Positions 1-10,026 of a stretch of 10,026 nt of DNA are shown here, in pieces. The DNA comes from a virus. Taxonomy: Duplodnaviria; Heunggongvirae; Uroviricota; Caudoviricetes. The DNA lies in IMG/VR virus record IMGVR_UViG_2706794694_000003, one strand, 5' to 3'. Each line of letters starts with the position of its first letter. Within the stretch, counting starts at the first letter, position 1. The translations under genes and the position numbers were made by a program. The notes beneath the pieces are model-generated. The model was not told the DNA's origin. It did not search any database and saw only the letters and a list, made by a program, of their open reading frames with translations.

Positions 1-54
1 GTTACGCAGAGAATCGTAACGGGATACCAGATCAAGAGCCTGTCCAATGTGCAT
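1..54 (-). CDS. insG: IS4-family transposase, N-terminal 18 codons (partial, runs off window)
   Basis: Minus-strand translation from ATG 54-52 gives MHIGQALDLVSRYDSLRN, which I recall as the start of IS4 InsG. Not in the ORF track because it is truncated by the window edge. Confidence 0.55.
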   Translation of the reverse strand, partial: MHIGQALDLVSRYDSLRN

Positions 55-138
55 AAAAAAATCCGGAAACAAGTGAGCGTTTCCGGATTCTTACACAGCC
101 ACTGGATCGGTCAACTGATCCTTAACTGATCGGCATTA
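1..138 (-). mobile_element. IS4-like insertion sequence, left end (partial; continues beyond window start)
   Basis: Read on the minus strand from 138: TAATGCCGATCAGTTAAG..., then an 84-nt leader containing a 10-bp hairpin (61-70 pairs with 79-88) followed by a T7 run, then the transposase ATG at 54-52. Identification rests on my recollection of the IS4 transposase N-terminus and terminal repeat, not on a search. Confidence 0.6.
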
Positions 139-1278
139 CACCACCGGGACGCGGATTCATATCTTCCAGGTCGCGGCAGTCATTGGAAGAGTAAATTCCC
201 CAGTTGATCCCGGTGGCGTAGGCTTCAAAACGGGACTTCATATCCCCGCGCAGTAACGCCCCGGCGTTAAATTTGGCGTAATAAACGCCCTGCTTACTTT
301 TTCGTACCAGTCCGGTGTTGATCCGCTGTTCGATGCGGGTCAGATACGGCACCAGTGAATAGTTGATAAATCCCAGCCCCAGCTCTTCGATATTGTTGAA
401 GGTGGCGCGATCGGTGTTCTGCACCATGTGCAACGGCACCCGGAACAGACGACAGATTTCTTCCAGCTGAAACTTGCGGGTTTCCAGGAACTGACTGTCC
501 TCGGCGTTCAGCGCCATCGACTTCCAGTCCAGCCCCATTTCCAGAATCATCGGGCGGTGAGCATTGCCAAGCCCCGTGTGACACTCCTCAAAATCTTTCT
601 TCAGACGCTCGTAAGCATCCGGCGTGAGCTTTTGTTCCGTACGCAACACACCGGATGTCACCGCACCATTACTAAACAACCTGGCACCGTGCTCCTCGGT
701 TGCCGCTGCCAGTGAAATGGCCTCACGCGCATACGCAATGGGATTCAGCCCGACAAGTCCATCCAGCGTCAGGGTGCGCACATGCCAGATTTCATTCTGG
801 GTCAACACATCCACGGAACCATCCGGAAACGTCACCTGATAAACCGGCTGCCACTGGCTGTTCAGCTTCGGTTCCACACAGCCCGGATCTATCGGAAGAA
901 GCTCCACCACTTCTCCCAGTGCCTTTACCTTGTAGGCGTAAAAATTCCCCCGTAGACACAGGCAGACAATAACCAGCTCCCAGAATTCCTGCGGTGTCAT
1001 GTAGCCATTAGGTTTTGCCGAAACCAACTTATGCAGTCGTTCATCCACCGCCCGTGTTTTCAGGGTACCGCTGATTTTGTAGAGACTGCAGGGCAGCATA
1101 CCAACAGACTCTGCCAGCACCCTGACGCAAGAATAGACCGCCGTCAGGCGCATGGCCCGCTGGCTACTGATCCGCTTTCCGGTATAGGTGTCGTATGACA
1201 GCCCGATAGCATCAGCAGTTCTGCTGGCGTGGTCACCGGCACATCGCTTTTTCGTTGAAATAATCCCGAAAAGAACAC
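122..1278 (-). CDS. Phage portal protein, HK97 family; probably disrupted (start unresolved, 3' end inside the IS4 terminus)
   Basis: Track ORF 122..1369 translates to a portal-like protein (AMRLTAVYSCVRVLAES motif and a long conserved body). The first 30 track codons begin at TTG, are Cys/Arg/Trp-rich and overlap the 60-aa ORF in another frame, so they are unlikely to be real. The only strong RBS (GGAGGT 1290-1285) precedes GTG 1278 in a different frame. Stop TAA 122-124 lies inside the putative IS4 terminal repeat. Confidence 0.6.
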
Positions 1279-1460
1279 TATTTACCTCCGCCGACAGACT
1301 GCCGTGTACGGTCGAGATATCGCGCCACCAGCCACGACCAGAACAGGCACAGCGCCCCGGCAACAACAAAACCCGCCGGGGGATAAATCAGCCAGGCACC
1401 ATACGCCAGCAAAAGCGCACCCAGCACGCCCACCAGAGGCGCGAGAATCAGCATGATCAT
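1278..1460 (-). CDS. Hypothetical small membrane protein (60 aa, two predicted transmembrane helices)
   Basis: ATG at 1460 is preceded by GAGGTAA with good spacing and starts 12 nt after the terminase large-subunit stop. Codon usage is E. coli-like (CTG/GCG-rich). Translation [60 protein letters not shown] has two hydrophobic segments and a charged tail. No family recognised. Confidence 0.45.
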
Positions 1461-1471
1461 AATTACCTCAG

Positions 1472-3205
1472 TTAAAGCGAGCGGATCCCGTAGGACTCAA
1501 TGTGGTCAGACAGCGTGTCTTCTTTCTCGTACAGCATGGCTCTGCCAACCGCCATAATCAGCGCAACTGCACCATCGATTTTGTTTTCCGCCTGCTCTTT
1601 GACGGGTTTCACCACATCATCGTTACCCGGCATGTTTTTGCCGACCACGTTGCCGATACACCAGGTCATGATGGGATTGCCGTCATGATGAAAACGTCCC
1701 GATTCAATCGCTGCTTCCAGCTCTTTCATCGGATCGGACATATTGGTGAAGTTCTGGACGATAGTGACGGGATTCAGGTCTTCATCAGCAAGGTCATGTG
1801 ACAACCCGGTCGCCCCGAAGGGGTCGATGGGTGACTCACTGACCGGGCTGATTTTGTTCGCCGCTTTGGCCTCCTCGAGGATGTAGCGATAATCCACCTC
1901 CGCACCATCGGTAACGGTCAGAACGCCCATTTCCACCCATTTCTGAAAGCGTTCGGCTGTCCGTCGATCTTCATTTTTCTCGACGCTGTACACCGTGTCA
2001 TACGGTACCCAGAAACGCGGGGCCACACTGTAGTAATGCGTTTTACCGTCAATCTCGCGGGTATAAAGTCGCGCCATGCTGTTCATATCCAGCTTACGCG
2101 CCAGGTCAAAGGCCAGAATGCACGGCTGCCCCTCGAACTGCTCAAGGGTCAGTGATTTATCCTCGCAGCTCTGCCAGCTCACCAAGTTGAAATACGCCGA
2201 ACGCGCCGACACCCAGATATTGAGGTGTTTTGTTTTAAAGACGTTTGCCAGACGGGCGTTATTTTTCGCACGCTGCTGCTGACTTAACAAAAATTCGCGA
2301 TAAACCGACACGCCAATATTTGGATTGGCTTTTTCCAGCACCTGCGGGCCGGTCCAGTCGTCACCTTCATCAACGGTATAGATGATCCCGAACAGTTCAT
2401 CGTTAGGCACCGAGCCGTTGAGCATCTCGATGACTTCCCGCCGCTTGTCGTAGCACGGCCCCTCAATGTTGTACCCGGCGGTGGTGATGGCCCACATCAG
2501 TGGCTGACGTCGCGCCCCCATCCCGGTAAGCATTGTGGTATAAAGCGCATCGGTGGCATGCTCGTGATATTCATCAACCACGGCACAGTGGGGTGATGAA
2601 CCATCACCTGGGTTGCCGATCAGCGGTTCAAACCGCGCGCCATCCTCCGGACGGTTCATGTTTGAGGCGTTAACCTCAATCCCGAACGCTTCCGTCAGCA
2701 TGGGTGTGCGTTTACACATCAGTCGCGCCGGGCGAAAGACTTCCCACGCCTGTTTCTCTGTCGTGGCACCGGAATACACTTCCGCGCCAAACTCGTTATC
2801 ACAGGCAAAACAATACAGGGCAACACCGGCAGAGATTGCTGATTTGCCGTTCTTACGGGGGATTTCGGTGTACACCTCCCGGAAGCGGCGCAACCGGGTG
2901 CCTTTATTGACCCAGCCAAACGCACAGCAGATCACAAATAGCTGCCACGGCTCCAGCGTGATGGGCATCCGTTTGAATGCCCACTCCCCCTTGGTGTGCG
3001 GCAACAGCTGAATAAATTTCGCGGCCCGTTCAGCCAGGTCCTTGTCGAAGCGGTAACGAAACGACTTACTTTTTTCCGCCATCAGGTCATCAAGATGGCG
3101 CTGGCAGGCCTGAATCACAAACTGGCAGGCAACAATCTTTCCGCGCACGACATCCCGGGCATACTGATTTGCAGCATTTACGTTGGGGTAAGATTTCCGG
3201 CTCAT
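1472..3205 (-). CDS. Phage terminase large subunit
   Basis: 577-aa ORF with ATG start whose ATGA overlaps the stop of the upstream small-subunit gene. Walker A-like RKNGKS motif and typical ATPase/nuclease-length architecture. It follows the small subunit and precedes the portal. Confidence 0.9.
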
Positions 3206-3696
3206 GATTCGATAATTTTCAGAAACGGGTTAGTGGCTTTCTTCTGCCCCGCCAGGCCAATCAGACGCTGGCGGCTGCTGGGGTCGAGTCCGAGCATTGC
3301 CCCCGTGCTGCTCATCTCGGACTCCTGTTCTTTTTTGGCGGTCAGCTCCGGATTTTTGACCCTGCCGCCCATTGCACCGGTGATGGTGTTGCCCTGTATG
3401 GCAATATTTTTCACGGCACGTCGCCAGAACTCATAGGCCACGCACCACCGCTCAAGTACCGCCAGGTCAGTCACGCACAGCAGGCCCTGACCGCAGAGTT
3501 CTTTGGTTGTCAGTTGCCACATGATCGTGGCGAGAGGGAGATCTTCTTCAGCGAACCACTCTGGTGGCTCAACACCTTTGATGGGCGTAAAAACAGGTTC
3601 ATCTTTGTTCAGGGCTCGCTTGCCGGGGTTTCCGGCCAGCGCCTTGCGCGCCGTTGGCTTGGGGCGACGCCCGGAACGCCCCGCCGTTCCAGCCAT
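3202..3696 (-). CDS. Phage terminase small subunit (P27-like family)
   Basis: Chosen start is ATG 3696-3694 ([18 protein letters not shown]...), preceded by AGGAG at about 8 nt. The track start at 3705 is GTG and adds 3 codons. The basic N-terminus is typical of small terminase subunits. Stop overlaps the large-subunit ATG. Confidence 0.8.
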
Positions 3697-3746
3697 ATGC
3701 GGCACTCCTGGTTAAATTTCATTTTTCGCGGGTATAAAAAAACGAT

Positions 3747-3817: not shown

Positions 3818-4168
3818 TCACCGGATTCGTTCGCGCGCTGTTTTCGCTTTATGGCAGGGCCAGCACAGACTCTGCAGGTTGCTGTCTGCGTCTGTTCCGC
3901 CATGCGCTTTCGGGATGATGTGGTCGACGGTTTTCGCCTCGCTCACCACACCGACACGCAGACACAACTGACACAGACCTTTATCGCGCTTCAGAATACG
4001 GGCACGAATCACCGTCCATTTTGAGCCATAGCCACGCTGGTGGCGGCTCAGTCCGCGCTGGTGCTGCACCCAGCCTTCACCGCGATGTTTATCGCAGTAA
4101 CCCGAACTGTCTGTGGTTGTACCTGCACATCCACGCTTACGGCAGGCACGTGGGATTAGTGATGGCAT
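3818..4168 (-). CDS. HNH endonuclease (packaging-associated, HK97 gp74-like position)
   Basis: 116-aa ORF with ATG start and GAGGT RBS. Cys-rich N-terminal region, then DHIIPKAHGG and CWPCHKAK, consistent with an HNH/zinc-finger nuclease. Located immediately upstream of the terminase genes. Confidence 0.85.
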   Translation of the reverse strand: MPSLIPRACRKRGCAGTTTDSSGYCDKHRGEGWVQHQRGLSRHQRGYGSKWTVIRARILKRDKGLCQLCLRVGVVSEAKTVDHIIPKAHGGTDADSNLQSLCWPCHKAKTARERIR

Positions 4169-4465: not shown

Positions 4466-4715
4466 NNNNNNNNNNNNNNNNNNNNNNNNNNNNNNNNNNN
4501 NNNNNNNNNNNNNNNNNNNNNNNNNNNNNNNNNNNNNNNNNNNNNNNNNNNNNNNNNNNNNNNNNNNNNNNNNNNNNNNNNNNNNNNNNNNNNNNNNNNN
4601 NNNNNNNNNNNNNNNNNNNNNNNNNNNNNNNNNNNNNNNNNNNNNNNNNNNNNNNNNNNNNNNNNNNNNNNNNNNNNNNNNNNNNNNNNNNNNNNNNNNN
4701 NNNNNNNNNNNNNNN
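4466..4715. other. Assembly gap (250 N)
   Basis: Uninterrupted run of N from 4466 to 4715. Confidence 0.95.
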
Positions 4716-5001
4716 CCGGTATATCGACTTTGATGTACGGGTTAATTTGTCTGGCGACAGTGGCAAGGTCTTTATTCAGGAGGGCTTTGCATTCTGCTTC
4801 GGTATACGTTTTACCGAGCATGATGTCTTTTCCGGTGTGTCCGTGACATACAGTCCATACACCAATGATATCTTTGTATGGTATGTAGCTGACACCTTCC
4901 AGACCATCGTTACCACCTGGGCCAGTGATTAACACAGATGCTATAGCAACAGCCCCACCACCAATAGCAGCTGCAACAGCCTTGCGTAATGATGGCGACA
5001 T
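4716..5001 (-). CDS. R: SAR-type endolysin (phage lysozyme), N-terminal 95 codons; 3' end lost in the gap
   Basis: ATG 5001-4999 with GAGGTG RBS. The Gly/Ala-rich N-terminal segment ([27 protein letters not shown]) is a signal-anchor-release domain, followed by lysozyme-like sequence ([22 protein letters not shown]...). Resembles the phage 21 endolysin as I recall it. Confidence 0.85.
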
Positions 5002-5216
5002 TATTCACCTCTCGCAGCCTTACGCTTGTCTTCTCTTATTTTGAAATACAGATTTGTCAGATAAGTCAGAAGCCCCAGAAGCAGACTTCCCAGCACACCA
5101 ATCGCAGCCCACTGTGATGGACTGACCTGATCCAACCACTGCAAAAACCAGTAGCCGGCACTGCCGGCGGAGGTGCCGTAGGCAATGCCTGTTGATATTT
5201 TTTCCATCTGATACAT
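5001..5216 (-). CDS. S: Class II holin (phage 21 S-like pinholin) with dual-start motif
   Basis: 71 aa, [71 protein letters not shown], with two transmembrane segments and a charged C-terminus. Met1 and Met4 give the antiholin/holin dual start. Stop TAA shares a base with the endolysin ATG. Confidence 0.85.
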
Positions 5217-7440: not shown

Positions 7441-7827
7441 CTACATAATTCGTTCTACGTATCTGTCCATCTCCAGCCGGATATCAAGCATCATCAACAT
7501 GCCATCAATAACCCCTTCCGCTTTCTGCAGGCGCTTGCCAATACAGGTATCCGAACACCCATGTTTCCGTGCCAGACTCATAAAAGTCATTCCACCTACG
7601 TAATAATCCACCAGCAAATCGTGCAAATCCTGATTTTTCTTGTTCAACCGGGCCATACAGCCACAAATTATCATTGCATCATCATCAGAACACTGAGGGC
7701 GTGATTTCACTTTCGACGGAATTAACCCTTTAAAACCAGCAGCGATCGACGCCCAGGATACATCTTCATGAGTGTTTGCAGCCCAAGCCCCCCACCGTTC
7801 CATAACCTGCTGAATATCACGCGCCAT
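7441..7827 (-). CDS. Late-gene antitermination protein Q (Stx-phage Q933-like type)
   Basis: Chosen start ATG 7827 ([25 protein letters not shown]...) with AGGTGA RBS; the track's upstream ATG at 7848 adds 7 codons. Cys clusters (CGCMARL, HGCSDTC) suggest zinc binding. Resembles the Q of Stx2 phages as I recall it. Overlaps the rusA stop. Confidence 0.8.
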
Positions 7828-8188
7828 CGTTATCACCTGTGATTTCATAAATCTTCACGCCCAGTCGCCCACCAGGAACGAGCTGACCGCGCACAATATT
7901 GATTTCATCAAACTGCTCGTCGTCTATGAGTAGTCCGGCATGCGTCAGCGCATCCAGTGGTGCTTTCAGGATATTGTCCAGGTCACGACGGCGCTTATCC
8001 GGTGGCTCTGCAATAATCTTTATCGCCAGCCTTCCGGACAGGTTTAATTTCAGCCGCTGCTGGCGAACAATTAGCGTCACATCACGGCGATAACGCTCAC
8101 CAACTTTTGATACAAAATATGTGCTGCCACGACGTCGCCAGTAAGTATTCACCGTCGGCGGATAAGGTAAAATAAACTCATGGCGCAT
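7817..8188 (-). CDS. rusA: RusA-family Holliday junction resolvase
   Basis: 123 aa; [15 protein letters not shown]... and [29 protein letters not shown] match the RusA catalytic region (compare DRRRRDLDNLQKAAFDAL in E. coli RusA as I recall it). ATG start, in the nin-region position before Q. Confidence 0.85.
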
Positions 8189-8441: not shown

Positions 8442-9833
8442 TCAAAAGAAACGCTCCATCTTACTGCTGTCGGTACGTGTATTGCTGTATCTGCGCGGCT
8501 GGGGCTGCCGCATTGGGGTGGAAAGAACCTGTGCGCTTTCCTGGTCCACAGGCAGAAAATGTCCGTTATAAAAACGCCGGTAAATCGTCCCCAGAGAACC
8601 GTTACGTTGTTTCGTGATATTAATTTCTGCTATGCCTGTAGCCTGTGTATCCGGGTTGTACACTTCATCCCTGTAAAGCATCAGAATGATGTCTGCATCC
8701 GCCTCTATTTCTCCGGAATTTTTCAGGTCTGAGTTCATGGGACGTTTATTGGGTCTGGACTCCACACCGCGGGAGAGCTGGCTCAGCGCAATCAACGGAA
8801 AACCACCGGATTTTGCCAGGCCTTTAAGCCCCTTTGAGATTTCACCCACGGCAAGGTCATGACGCCCCGTGGTTCGGGTTTTTATCAGCCCGAGATAATC
8901 AACCACCACCAGCGCCGTTTCCGGATGTTTAATCAGATGGTGTTTCGTTGTTGCGCATATCTCATCAATGGTCAGGTTCGCCTGGTCCACCATCCAGATA
9001 TTGCGCCCGGTCATCCGCCCCACCCCTTGTGAGAAACGCGCCCAGTCTTCATCTTCAAAGTGAGCCACAGATTTCAGGCGTGATACTGGCATCCCTCCAG
9101 CCGCAGACACCATACGTTCACCAATCTGGATGTTCGCCATCTCCATGGTGAACAGAAGCACACCATGCCCCTGCTCAGTCACCTTGTCGATGATGTCCAG
9201 CGCAAGTTCGGTTTTCCCCATCGAAGGACGGGCGGCAATGAATACCAGGTCTCCGGGCTCCATACCGCCTGTTTTTGCGTCCAGTTCATCAATACCGGTC
9301 ATCAACGTCCTGGATTTCTCCAGCCCCTGATTCCGGCATTCAACACGCTCAACCACTTCCGGAAGCACATCATCAATATGTACCGGCTGAATGACGCCCT
9401 TTCCTGTCGACAGTGTGACCATCATGTTCTGCGCATCCTTCAGGGCATCTTCAGCTGCTTCACAGGTATGCGCATCACGTAATTTCTGCAGCGCCTCATT
9501 CAGTGTTTTTTCTGCATCGCGCAGTGCGGCATTGCGCCGCAACGCTGCAACATAGTGCTCCAGTGAAGACTTCACCCAGGTTTTACGCCCGGTATCAGTA
9601 ATCACCGGGGCAAGTTCCGGCATCTCATTACACAACAGCACGGGGTCAATCACTCCTGAAACACGGGCCTGTCTGCAGATGCCTGTGTAGATATCCCGAT
9701 ACGCTCGTACAGAAAAAATGTCCGCCGGTAGTGTGATCAGAATATCCATCACTTCATGATCTGCCCCACGCAGAAAGAATGCGCCAATGACAGCGCCTTC
9801 CAGGTCATCATTACGCCAGACTGGTGTTGTCAT
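8442..9833 (-). CDS. Replicative DNA helicase, DnaB family (phage-encoded)
   Basis: Chosen start ATG 9833 with GAGGTG RBS (MTTPVWRNDDLEGAVIGAFFL...), giving 463 aa. Walker A ARPSMGKTELAL and a DnaB-like C-terminal domain. The track's 47 extra N-terminal codons begin at GTG and look non-coding. Confidence 0.85.
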   Translation of the reverse strand: MTTPVWRNDDLEGAVIGAFFLRGADHEVMDILITLPADIFSVRAYRDIYTGICRQARVSGVIDPVLLCNEMPELAPVITDTGRKTWVKSSLEHYVAALRRNAALRDAEKTLNEALQKLRDAHTCEAAEDALKDAQNMMVTLSTGKGVIQPVHIDDVLPEVVERVECRNQGLEKSRTLMTGIDELDAKTGGMEPGDLVFIAARPSMGKTELALDIIDKVTEQGHGVLLFTMEMANIQIGERMVSAAGGMPVSRLKSVAHFEDEDWARFSQGVGRMTGRNIWMVDQANLTIDEICATTKHHLIKHPETALVVVDYLGLIKTRTTGRHDLAVGEISKGLKGLAKSGGFPLIALSQLSRGVESRPNKRPMNSDLKNSGEIEADADIILMLYRDEVYNPDTQATGIAEINITKQRNGSLGTIYRRFYNGHFLPVDQESAQVLSTPMRQPQPRRYSNTRTDSSKMERFF

Positions 9834-9948
9834 GCAGCCACACCTCTGATACAAGAACGGTAGCTGGGCCAGTTGAACGACAACCAGTTGCGCCCCCCGT
9901 CTGTGATCCTGTCGGCAATGCGGGGGCTGATGAACGCTGGATTTGCCC

Positions 9949-10026
9949 CTATATTTCCAGACACCTGTTATCACTTAACCCATTACTGGCTTGCTGCCGT
10001 AGATATTCCCGTGGCGAGCGATAACC
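9949..10026 (-). CDS. 3' end of an upstream gene (likely replication initiator/helicase-loader class), partial
   Basis: Only one minus frame is open from the window edge to TAG at 9949-9951 (...GYRSPREYLRQQASNGLSDNRCLEI). Function is inferred from lambdoid gene order only. Confidence 0.3.
   Translation of the reverse strand, partial: GYRSPREYLRQQASNGLSDNRCLEI

Follow-up and report, generated by a model that had tools for sequence, protein, structure and literature searches.

Gene Organization of the Window

In an initial annotation of the window (the whole stretch of 10,026 nucleotides analysed here), a gene for a small protein of 60 amino acid residues was noticed between the terminase and portal genes, inside a head module of a kind in which the gene of the terminase large subunit (TerL) was said to be followed directly by that of the portal. 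The question raised by this locus is whether the small gene is real and, if it is, whether it forms an integral part of the module. Two explanations had been offered, a moron (for example one for superinfection exclusion, a membrane-acting toxin or a lysis modulator) and an artefact of the overlap with a disrupted portal start.

The ORF list, together with Pfam and TIGR/NCBIfam assignments, showed a late region of lambdoid type on the minus strand of the window. Genes were assigned on this strand for a DnaB-like helicase (8442–9974), RusA (7817–8188), the antiterminator Q (7441–7848), an ORF6N protein, a holin of the phage 21 type (P21-type, S-type; 5001–5216), a lysozyme hidden in part by a run of N at 4466–4715, an HNH endonuclease (3818–4168), a P27-type small terminase (3202–3705) and TerL (1472–3205; Pfam TerL_ATPase and TerL_nuclease, PHROG 9). 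The small gene, ymfR, occupies positions 1278–1460 of the minus strand, a strand that the initial annotation had left unstated, and comprises, according to the ORF listing, 60 codons from an ATG start to a TAG stop at 1280–1278 (183 nt). Its location between terminase and portal was in agreement with the initial annotation, with TerL recognized by Pfam on one side and an HK97-family portal (Pfam Phage_portal, E 3e-107; TIGR01537) on the other.

The ymfR ORF is intact, and the strong ribosome-binding site ascribed to it was found on reading the sequence as a Shine-Dalgarno motif, GAGGT, at 1465–1469, 4 nt upstream of the ATG; a GAGG at equal spacing is conserved in the enterobacterial ymfR homologues. 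The TerL stop is separated from the ymfR ATG by 11 nt. On the downstream side, the portal GTG start (1278–1276) shares its G with the ymfR TAG (TAGTG, an overlap of 1 nt), and the portal Shine-Dalgarno motif, read as GGAGG at 1284–1288, lies within the final ymfR codons (GGGK). The GC3 value is 0.67 for ymfR versus 0.65 for TerL and portal, and ymfR is not compositionally foreign.

The portal start had been correctly described as disrupted. One G that is present in phiP27, ST64B and E. coli ZJ3920 is missing between positions 1217 and 1216, by which the frame is shifted after 21 codons and the gene is split into an N-terminal fragment of 44 amino acid residues (1144–1278, from the ORF list and alignment with the same three sequences) and the main body of the portal in the other frame (139–1216, the frame being open to 122). 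The 3′ end of the main body is cut by the end of an IS4 element at 1–138 (blastn, 95–97% identity to annotated IS4 copies), which truncates both the portal gene and the prophage; similarity to the phiP27 portal extends as far as about position 139, where the IS4 end starts.

The same exact YmfR is encoded in complete-genome loci in which the region is identical, portal deletion included. The IS4 transposase gene comes next in the identical loci L184, L185 and L188, and beyond IS4 the genomes with such loci contain more IS elements or host genes (bamE/recN, or raiA/pheA/tyrA), the protease, capsid and tail genes being gone. It was through these identical loci that the portal deletion was confirmed to be shared, and not through a scan of genome contigs with a 40-mer across the deletion, which gave 0 exact matches. 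The database name of the exact protein points to Shigella sonnei. Since the portal carries both a 1-nt deletion and an IS4 truncation, the ymfR gene of the window, though intact, is a relic within a prophage that is defective and of the Shigella sonnei type. The cryptic prophage e14 of E. coli K-12 is comparable, with ymfR intact and the terminase and portal genes truncated on either side.

Identity and Predicted Structure of YmfR

Public databases carry the exact protein sequence under the name "protein YmfR [Shigella sonnei]" or as MULTISPECIES [Shigella], and YmfR of E. coli K-12 (b1150, e14), the record of which is labelled as an IPR020297 domain protein, is identical to it in 58 of 60 residues (97%). 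A 501-nt query spanning the junction found a match in 1600 of the 5426 complete E. coli genomes (about 30%), where the RefSeq feature between "terminase large subunit" and "phage portal protein" reads "ymfR: protein YmfR". A membrane protein is annotated accordingly in phages phiP27 (L37) and ST64B (sb3), and phages SfI, SfII and SfIV also encode the peptide, just ahead of the portal. The annotation of ymfR is inconsistent, the gene being missing in SfIV and in Burkholderia phage vB_SR1; in the genome paper of SfIV, the portal is orf-3, right behind two terminase genes, and ymfR is unannotated. Thus named and catalogued already, ymfR is a late head-module gene of temperate phages of the P27/ST64B/SfV/e14 type and not a new one.

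Comparison with PHROG profiles assigned YmfR to PHROG 502, "membrane protein" (E 2.8e-28, residues 1–55 on profile positions 3–57 of 58), which was also matched by 38 of 38 diverse homologues. Clustering at 90% left 166 homologues, and when 1.84 billion cluster representatives were searched with a profile, 430 matched at E ≤ 1e-3, nearly all of 50–70 amino acid residues. Nothing significant was obtained for YmfR with Pfam and NCBIfam (a TctB match at E 0.025 is noise), and some family members gave sub-threshold matches to DUF1206 in Pfam.

The two hydrophobic segments noticed initially were evident both in the hydropathy profile, where Kyte-Doolittle means over 15 residues peak at 2.7 (residues 4–18) and 2.2 (residues 31–45), and in an AlphaFold model based on a 38-sequence alignment, which contains helices at residues 2–25 and 27–55 (mean pLDDT 76.6). 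YmfR is accordingly predicted to be a two-helix inner-membrane protein. A YPPAG turn lies between the segments and a basic tail follows the second, with four K/R and one D/E residues (net charge +3). By the well-established positive-inside rule, both the N and C ends would be cytoplasmic and the turn periplasmic. The family alignment shows little or no variation at G11, G14, G21, W23, the PPAG turn and G35. Foldseek comparison of the model with BFVD and PDB gave no match at E ≤ 0.001; the top BFVD matches, above this cut-off, were uncharacterised phage peptides of similar size.

ymfR Is a Genuine Gene

The proposal that ymfR might be a chance ORF, or an artefact of the disrupted portal start, has two observations in its favour. 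The portal start is truly frameshifted in the window, and an ORF of 415 codons with a TTG start (122–1369) overlaps the 3′ half of ymfR in another frame. Pfam and TIGR homology to portals starts, however, only at residue 69–77 of this ORF, downstream of the overlap, and the portal homology therefore does not span ymfR. The 415-residue ORF is the main frame of the portal running open upstream, and is spurious; the portal in fact starts with the GTG at 1278.

Furthermore, ymfR precedes intact portal genes in the functional phages phiP27 and ST64B, and SfI, SfII and SfIV likewise have it ahead of their portal genes. It is conserved as a protein, transmembrane core included, down to about 30% identity. 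Nei-Gojobori dN/dS values against the window gene were about 0.1–0.5 for divergent pairs (dS > 1), the tail giving higher values than codons 1–47 and the transmembrane core values down to about 0.1; a few near-identical pairs, with fewer than 10 substitutions, gave noisy values near 1. With conservation and purifying selection found for ymfR and portal homology confined to the region outside it, the artefact explanation is already refuted, and its residual probability is negligible.

Position and Translational Coupling of ymfR

Whether homologous phages carry an ORF at this junction was examined in 168 loci, representing 57 distinct proteins and drawn from the IMG/VR contigs of two family alignments, contigs with distant homologues and reference phages, in which the ORFs for YmfR-like proteins, TerL and portal were located with HMMs. 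They do so throughout: in all 168 loci, as far as the flanks extend, the YmfR ORF has TerL on one side and the portal on the other. The ymfR stop overlaps the portal start codon in 55 of the 57 distinct versions (TGATG in 36, TAGTG in 10 and TAATG in 9), and a Shine-Dalgarno-like 4-mer occurs in the last 15 nt in 56 of the 57, as compared with 29% of internal windows. The otherwise odd conservation of a C-terminal GG[EDK] motif would be explained by the portal Shine-Dalgarno sequence in the last ymfR codons. In one clade the ymfR start also overlaps the TerL end, by 4–7 nt.

A consensus scan of the minus strand revealed no promoter-like or terminator-like sites flanking ymfR, and the count of such sites in 4.4 kb was that expected from shuffled sequence. 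From the fixed slot, the stop/start overlaps and the embedded portal Shine-Dalgarno sequence it follows that ymfR is integral to the late operon, to which translational coupling ties it at its portal end and, in many cases, at its TerL end as well. The moron explanation, in the classical sense of a self-contained transcription unit, was not upheld, as ymfR is found without a promoter or terminator of its own, with the composition of its neighbours, in a constant slot and diverging together with the portal (see below). Odd composition and sporadic presence, by which classical morons are recognized, are not features of ymfR, which was present in every sampled member of the lineage.

Co-Inheritance with the Portal

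Distances between YmfR, TerL and portal were compared over 49 distinct loci in which TerL and portal are mosaically reassorted. YmfR distances followed those of the portal (Mantel r 0.80; partial r 0.72 given TerL), the partial correlation of YmfR with TerL given portal being 0.19. Among pairs of loci whose TerL proteins were less than 50% identical but whose portals were more than 85% identical, YmfR identity averaged 79%; where TerL identity exceeded 68% and portal identity stayed under 45%, YmfR identity was 47%. In mosaic genomes YmfR thus segregates with the portal and not with TerL. This co-segregation could stem from the physical stop/start overlap of the two genes rather than from a relationship between the two proteins.

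YmfR is kept with prohead proteases of either the S78 or the S49 family and with different TerL types, with a tail of the myovirus type (sheath protein, L001) or of another type (L005), and with unrelated holin families. As far as we have found, the coupling to the portal and the pattern of co-segregation are new; they do not by themselves establish a function.

An N-terminal portal motif, MF[FL]xxxF, accompanies YmfR in its clade, and four YmfR-less phages have portals with polar N-termini. A general link between the presence of YmfR and a hydrophobic portal N-terminus was considered and rejected, since it fails in Vibrio phage pVa-4 and Pseudomonas phage D14O, which have a two-helix ORF in the slot and yet polar portal N-termini; it is kept as a weak lead only.

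Occurrence among Phages with Related Portals

Fourteen phages with portals 27–40% identical to that of the window were sampled. HMM-positive two-helix ORFs were found in the slot in Klebsiella phage Kpn_R1 (3e-25), Burkholderia phage vB_SR1 (4e-13, unannotated), Ralstonia phage YO168_1 (5e-8) and Vibrio phages K233 and pVa-4 (2e-5 each), and the D3-like Pseudomonas phage D14O has there a two-helix ORF of 54 amino acid residues that is HMM-negative. No slot ORF was present in the HK97 relative HK633, Klebsiella phage KpF5, Pseudomonas phage phi2, Moraxella phage Mcat24 or Burkholderia phage KS9. Other cargo occupies the slot in Xanthomonas phage CP1 (an ORF of 214 amino acid residues), Streptococcus phage phiSC070807 (Phd/Doc) and Campylobacter phage CJIE4-5 (MazF).

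Since HK97 relatives such as HK633 are without ymfR, YmfR is lineage-specific, and it is evidently dispensable for HK97-type assembly in general. The statement that HK97-type modules pass straight from TerL to portal accordingly holds for HK97 relatives of this kind but not for the P27/ST64B/SfV/e14 lineage, in which ymfR is the norm. Taken jointly, the identity of YmfR, the reality of its gene, its expression architecture and its membership in the head module can be stated with high confidence, the function of the protein being a separate matter.

Possible Function of YmfR

The ymfR gene is uncharacterised, and its deletion or replacement in K-12 is without a reported phenotype (PMC9145139); since e14 is defective, a neutral deletion there is uninformative on phage growth. 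When an SOS-inducing drug is given, expression of the K-12 gene increases along with that of the rest of e14 (PMC10012262), which fits expression in the lytic cycle. A literature search retrieved no functional study of ymfR, nor of small membrane proteins encoded between terminase and portal.

A precedent is provided by phage T4, in which the membrane-bound portal initiator gp20 needs a viral factor, gp40 (PMC9958956). By analogy, our best guess, put forward tentatively, is that YmfR may be a late inner-membrane partner or helper of the portal or of prohead initiation. The late operon would be translated in series from TerL through YmfR to the portal, and YmfR, anchored in the membrane, would assist the portal or the initiation of proheads much as in T4, where gp20 depends on gp40. 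An autonomous role as host-directed cargo appears less likely.

The main competitor of this proposal, which we consider possible but doubtful, is that YmfR is a late accessory membrane protein acting on the host, by superinfection exclusion, a block of DNA entry, lysis timing or depolarisation, and is a moron in the functional sense. The category given to PHROG 502 is 'moron, auxiliary metabolic gene and host takeover', and in its size, two transmembrane helices and charged C-terminal tail YmfR resembles class II holins and small exclusion proteins. Such a role would also agree with HK97-type assembly in the relatives devoid of ymfR and with the cargo (Phd/Doc, MazF, the 214-residue ORF) that the slot takes in other HK97-like phages. 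The composition of ymfR is, however, that of its neighbours, no signal was seen by which it would be independently expressed in a lysogen, and its slot and coupling are fixed over deep divergence, unlike those of exchangeable cargo. Neither holin Pfam families, nor PADLOC defence models, nor the P21-type holin of the window matched YmfR; with PADLOC, two of the 38 family members matched LeoBC at E 0.065, which is noise. In addition, YmfR-positive phages have complete and mutually different lysis cassettes. The survival of an intact ymfR in two decayed prophages, those of the window and of K-12 e14, might be taken to indicate a benefit to the host; it was set aside as uninformative, since it concerns two examples and a gene of 183 nt, which is expected to stay intact by chance.

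It is also conceivable, though improbable, that ymfR is in essence a short leader cistron whose translational coupling brings ribosomes to the start of the portal gene and determines the portal:TerL ratio, its peptide being of little importance. This would account for the stop/start overlap in 55 of 57 versions, the portal Shine-Dalgarno sequence in the last codons in 56 of 57, the C-terminal GG[EDK] motif, which looks dictated by that sequence, and the additional overlap with the TerL end in one clade. A mere leader would not be expected to keep a specific two-helix sequence with its glycines, W23 and PPAG turn, nor to show dN/dS values down to about 0.1 in the transmembrane core at saturated dS; moreover, relatives do without a leader, their TerL being coupled straight to the portal. 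The remaining probability falls to something else than the roles named here.

If the reading of YmfR as a portal helper is followed further, hairpins of this type might be a widespread and overlooked membrane-anchored component of head assembly in the HK97 lineage that tethers or chaperones the portal at the inner membrane. This generalization, again by analogy and based on the strict coupling to the portal and the co-segregation with it, we regard as rather unlikely, and it would perhaps extend to the two-helix slot ORFs of the Vibrio, Ralstonia, Burkholderia and D3-like Pseudomonas phages. If true, the temperate phages of this large group would initiate their proheads in association with the membrane, as T4 does, and such initiation would extend beyond T4. 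For the window itself the finding is minor, as ymfR is already named and the prophage is degraded; what is offered is a modest but testable lead, a common gene for a 60-residue hairpin that is coupled to, and co-inherited with, the portal.

Comparison with Known Systems

The closest counterparts of the window gene are found in K-12 e14, phiP27 (L37) and ST64B (Sb3), which have in common the slot between TerL and portal, the upstream gap of 11 nt and the downstream overlap of 1 nt. YmfR proteins of phiP27 and ST64B are 97–98% identical to that of the window and equal in length, and the two residues by which K-12 YmfR differs are both in the variable C-terminal tail. The neighbouring genes have decayed differently, the portal of the window by the 1-nt deletion and the IS4 cut and the K-12 neighbours (aaaE, beeE) by other truncations.

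In phage lambda, a small gene is found in the same slot, between those of the terminase A and the portal B. Its product, gpW, is a soluble head-completion protein of 68 amino acid residues, and YmfR with its two hydrophobic helices is thereby set apart from gpW by description. Some Escherichia phage records call a stretch matching YmfR 'head-tail joining protein W', which appears to be a positional mis-annotation.

YmfR resembles class II holins and pinholins in being small, in its two transmembrane helices with glycine-rich faces, and in having a short N-terminus and a charged tail at the C-terminal end. It differs from them in that its gene lies in the head module, 3.5 kb from the lysis cassette, and in that alignment of YmfR with the holin of the window by hhalign gave a probability of 1.4%; none of the holin Pfam families rose above noise against the 38 family members.

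Searches of Pfam, NCBIfam, PHROG, BFVD and PDB revealed no sequence or fold similarity of YmfR to T4 gp40 or to any characterised protein, and the likeness to gp40 is one of functional analogy only. The head lineages differ as well, being T4-like for gp40 and HK97-like for YmfR. On the T4 side stands a phage factor that acts at the inner membrane in the portal or prohead-initiation step (PMC9958956), and on the other side a protein predicted to be embedded in the membrane, the gene of which is translationally coupled to, and inherited together with, that of the portal.

Portal Gene and Adjacent Regions of the Window

The portal gene of the window is frameshifted at about codon 21 by a 1-nt deletion at window 1216-1217 (minus strand), where, in comparison with phiP27, ST64B and E. 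coli ZJ3920, a G is missing and CTGGC is reduced to CTGC. The same deletion is carried by several complete genomes with identical loci, and it is therefore a fixed mutation, a read error being ruled out. At its 3′ end the portal gene is cut short by ~100 nt, where the end of an IS4 element occupies window 1-138. Downstream of IS4, genomes with the identical locus contain either additional IS elements or genes of the host (bamE/recN or raiA/pheA/tyrA), and thus the genes for prohead protease, capsid and tail are no longer present. Elsewhere in the window, a run of 250 N at 4466-4715 hides the lysozyme gene in its 3′ part and an Rz-like gene in its 5′ part, and produced both a spurious 180-aa ORF in the ORF listing and an apparent GC of 0.

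Portal and TerL Genes Flanking YmfR

The N-terminus of the window portal is VFFSGLF (window 1276-1258). At the homologous positions, nearly all portals encoded 3′ of YmfR-type genes (loci L001-L168, the YmfR-bearing set) open with MF[FL][PS]x[LMF]F, and this start is kept even among portals with only ~35% overall identity. Polar portal starts were found in four relatives devoid of YmfR; the counter-examples are the portals of pVa-4 and D14O, which start polar despite a two-helix ORF in the TerL-portal slot. The motif may reflect a re-initiation context or a contact site.

The TerL (terminase large subunit) and portal genes are mosaically reassorted among the same loci: portals sharing 93-95% identity with that of phiP27 are paired with TerL of only 41% identity, and TerL of ~70% identity with portals of ~38-40% identity. 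Such pairings imply that recombination is frequent at the TerL/ymfR boundary.

The YmfR family is inconsistently annotated across phage records. Homologues were left unannotated in Burkholderia phage vB_SR1 (L172:2215-2400) and Shigella phage SfIV (NC_022749, 2382-2483), and in several Escherichia phage records (ON470603, ON470584, ON470580) the annotated feature that underlies the YmfR match bears the name "head-tail joining protein W", apparently assigned by position.

Other Contents of the TerL-Portal Junction

In other HK97-like phages this junction is occupied by unrelated cargo, namely a Phd/Doc toxin-antitoxin pair in Streptococcus phage phiSC070807 (L180), a MazF toxin in Campylobacter phage CJIE4-5 (L181) and a 214-aa hypothetical protein in Xanthomonas phage CP1 (L177). 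The junction looks like a general hotspot for insertions. In the D3-like Pseudomonas phage vB_PaeS-D14O, a 54-aa two-helix ORF (L182:1209-1373) overlaps both TerL and portal. The family HMM failed to detect this ORF; its architecture is identical to that of YmfR, and it is either a very remote YmfR homologue or an independent analogue.
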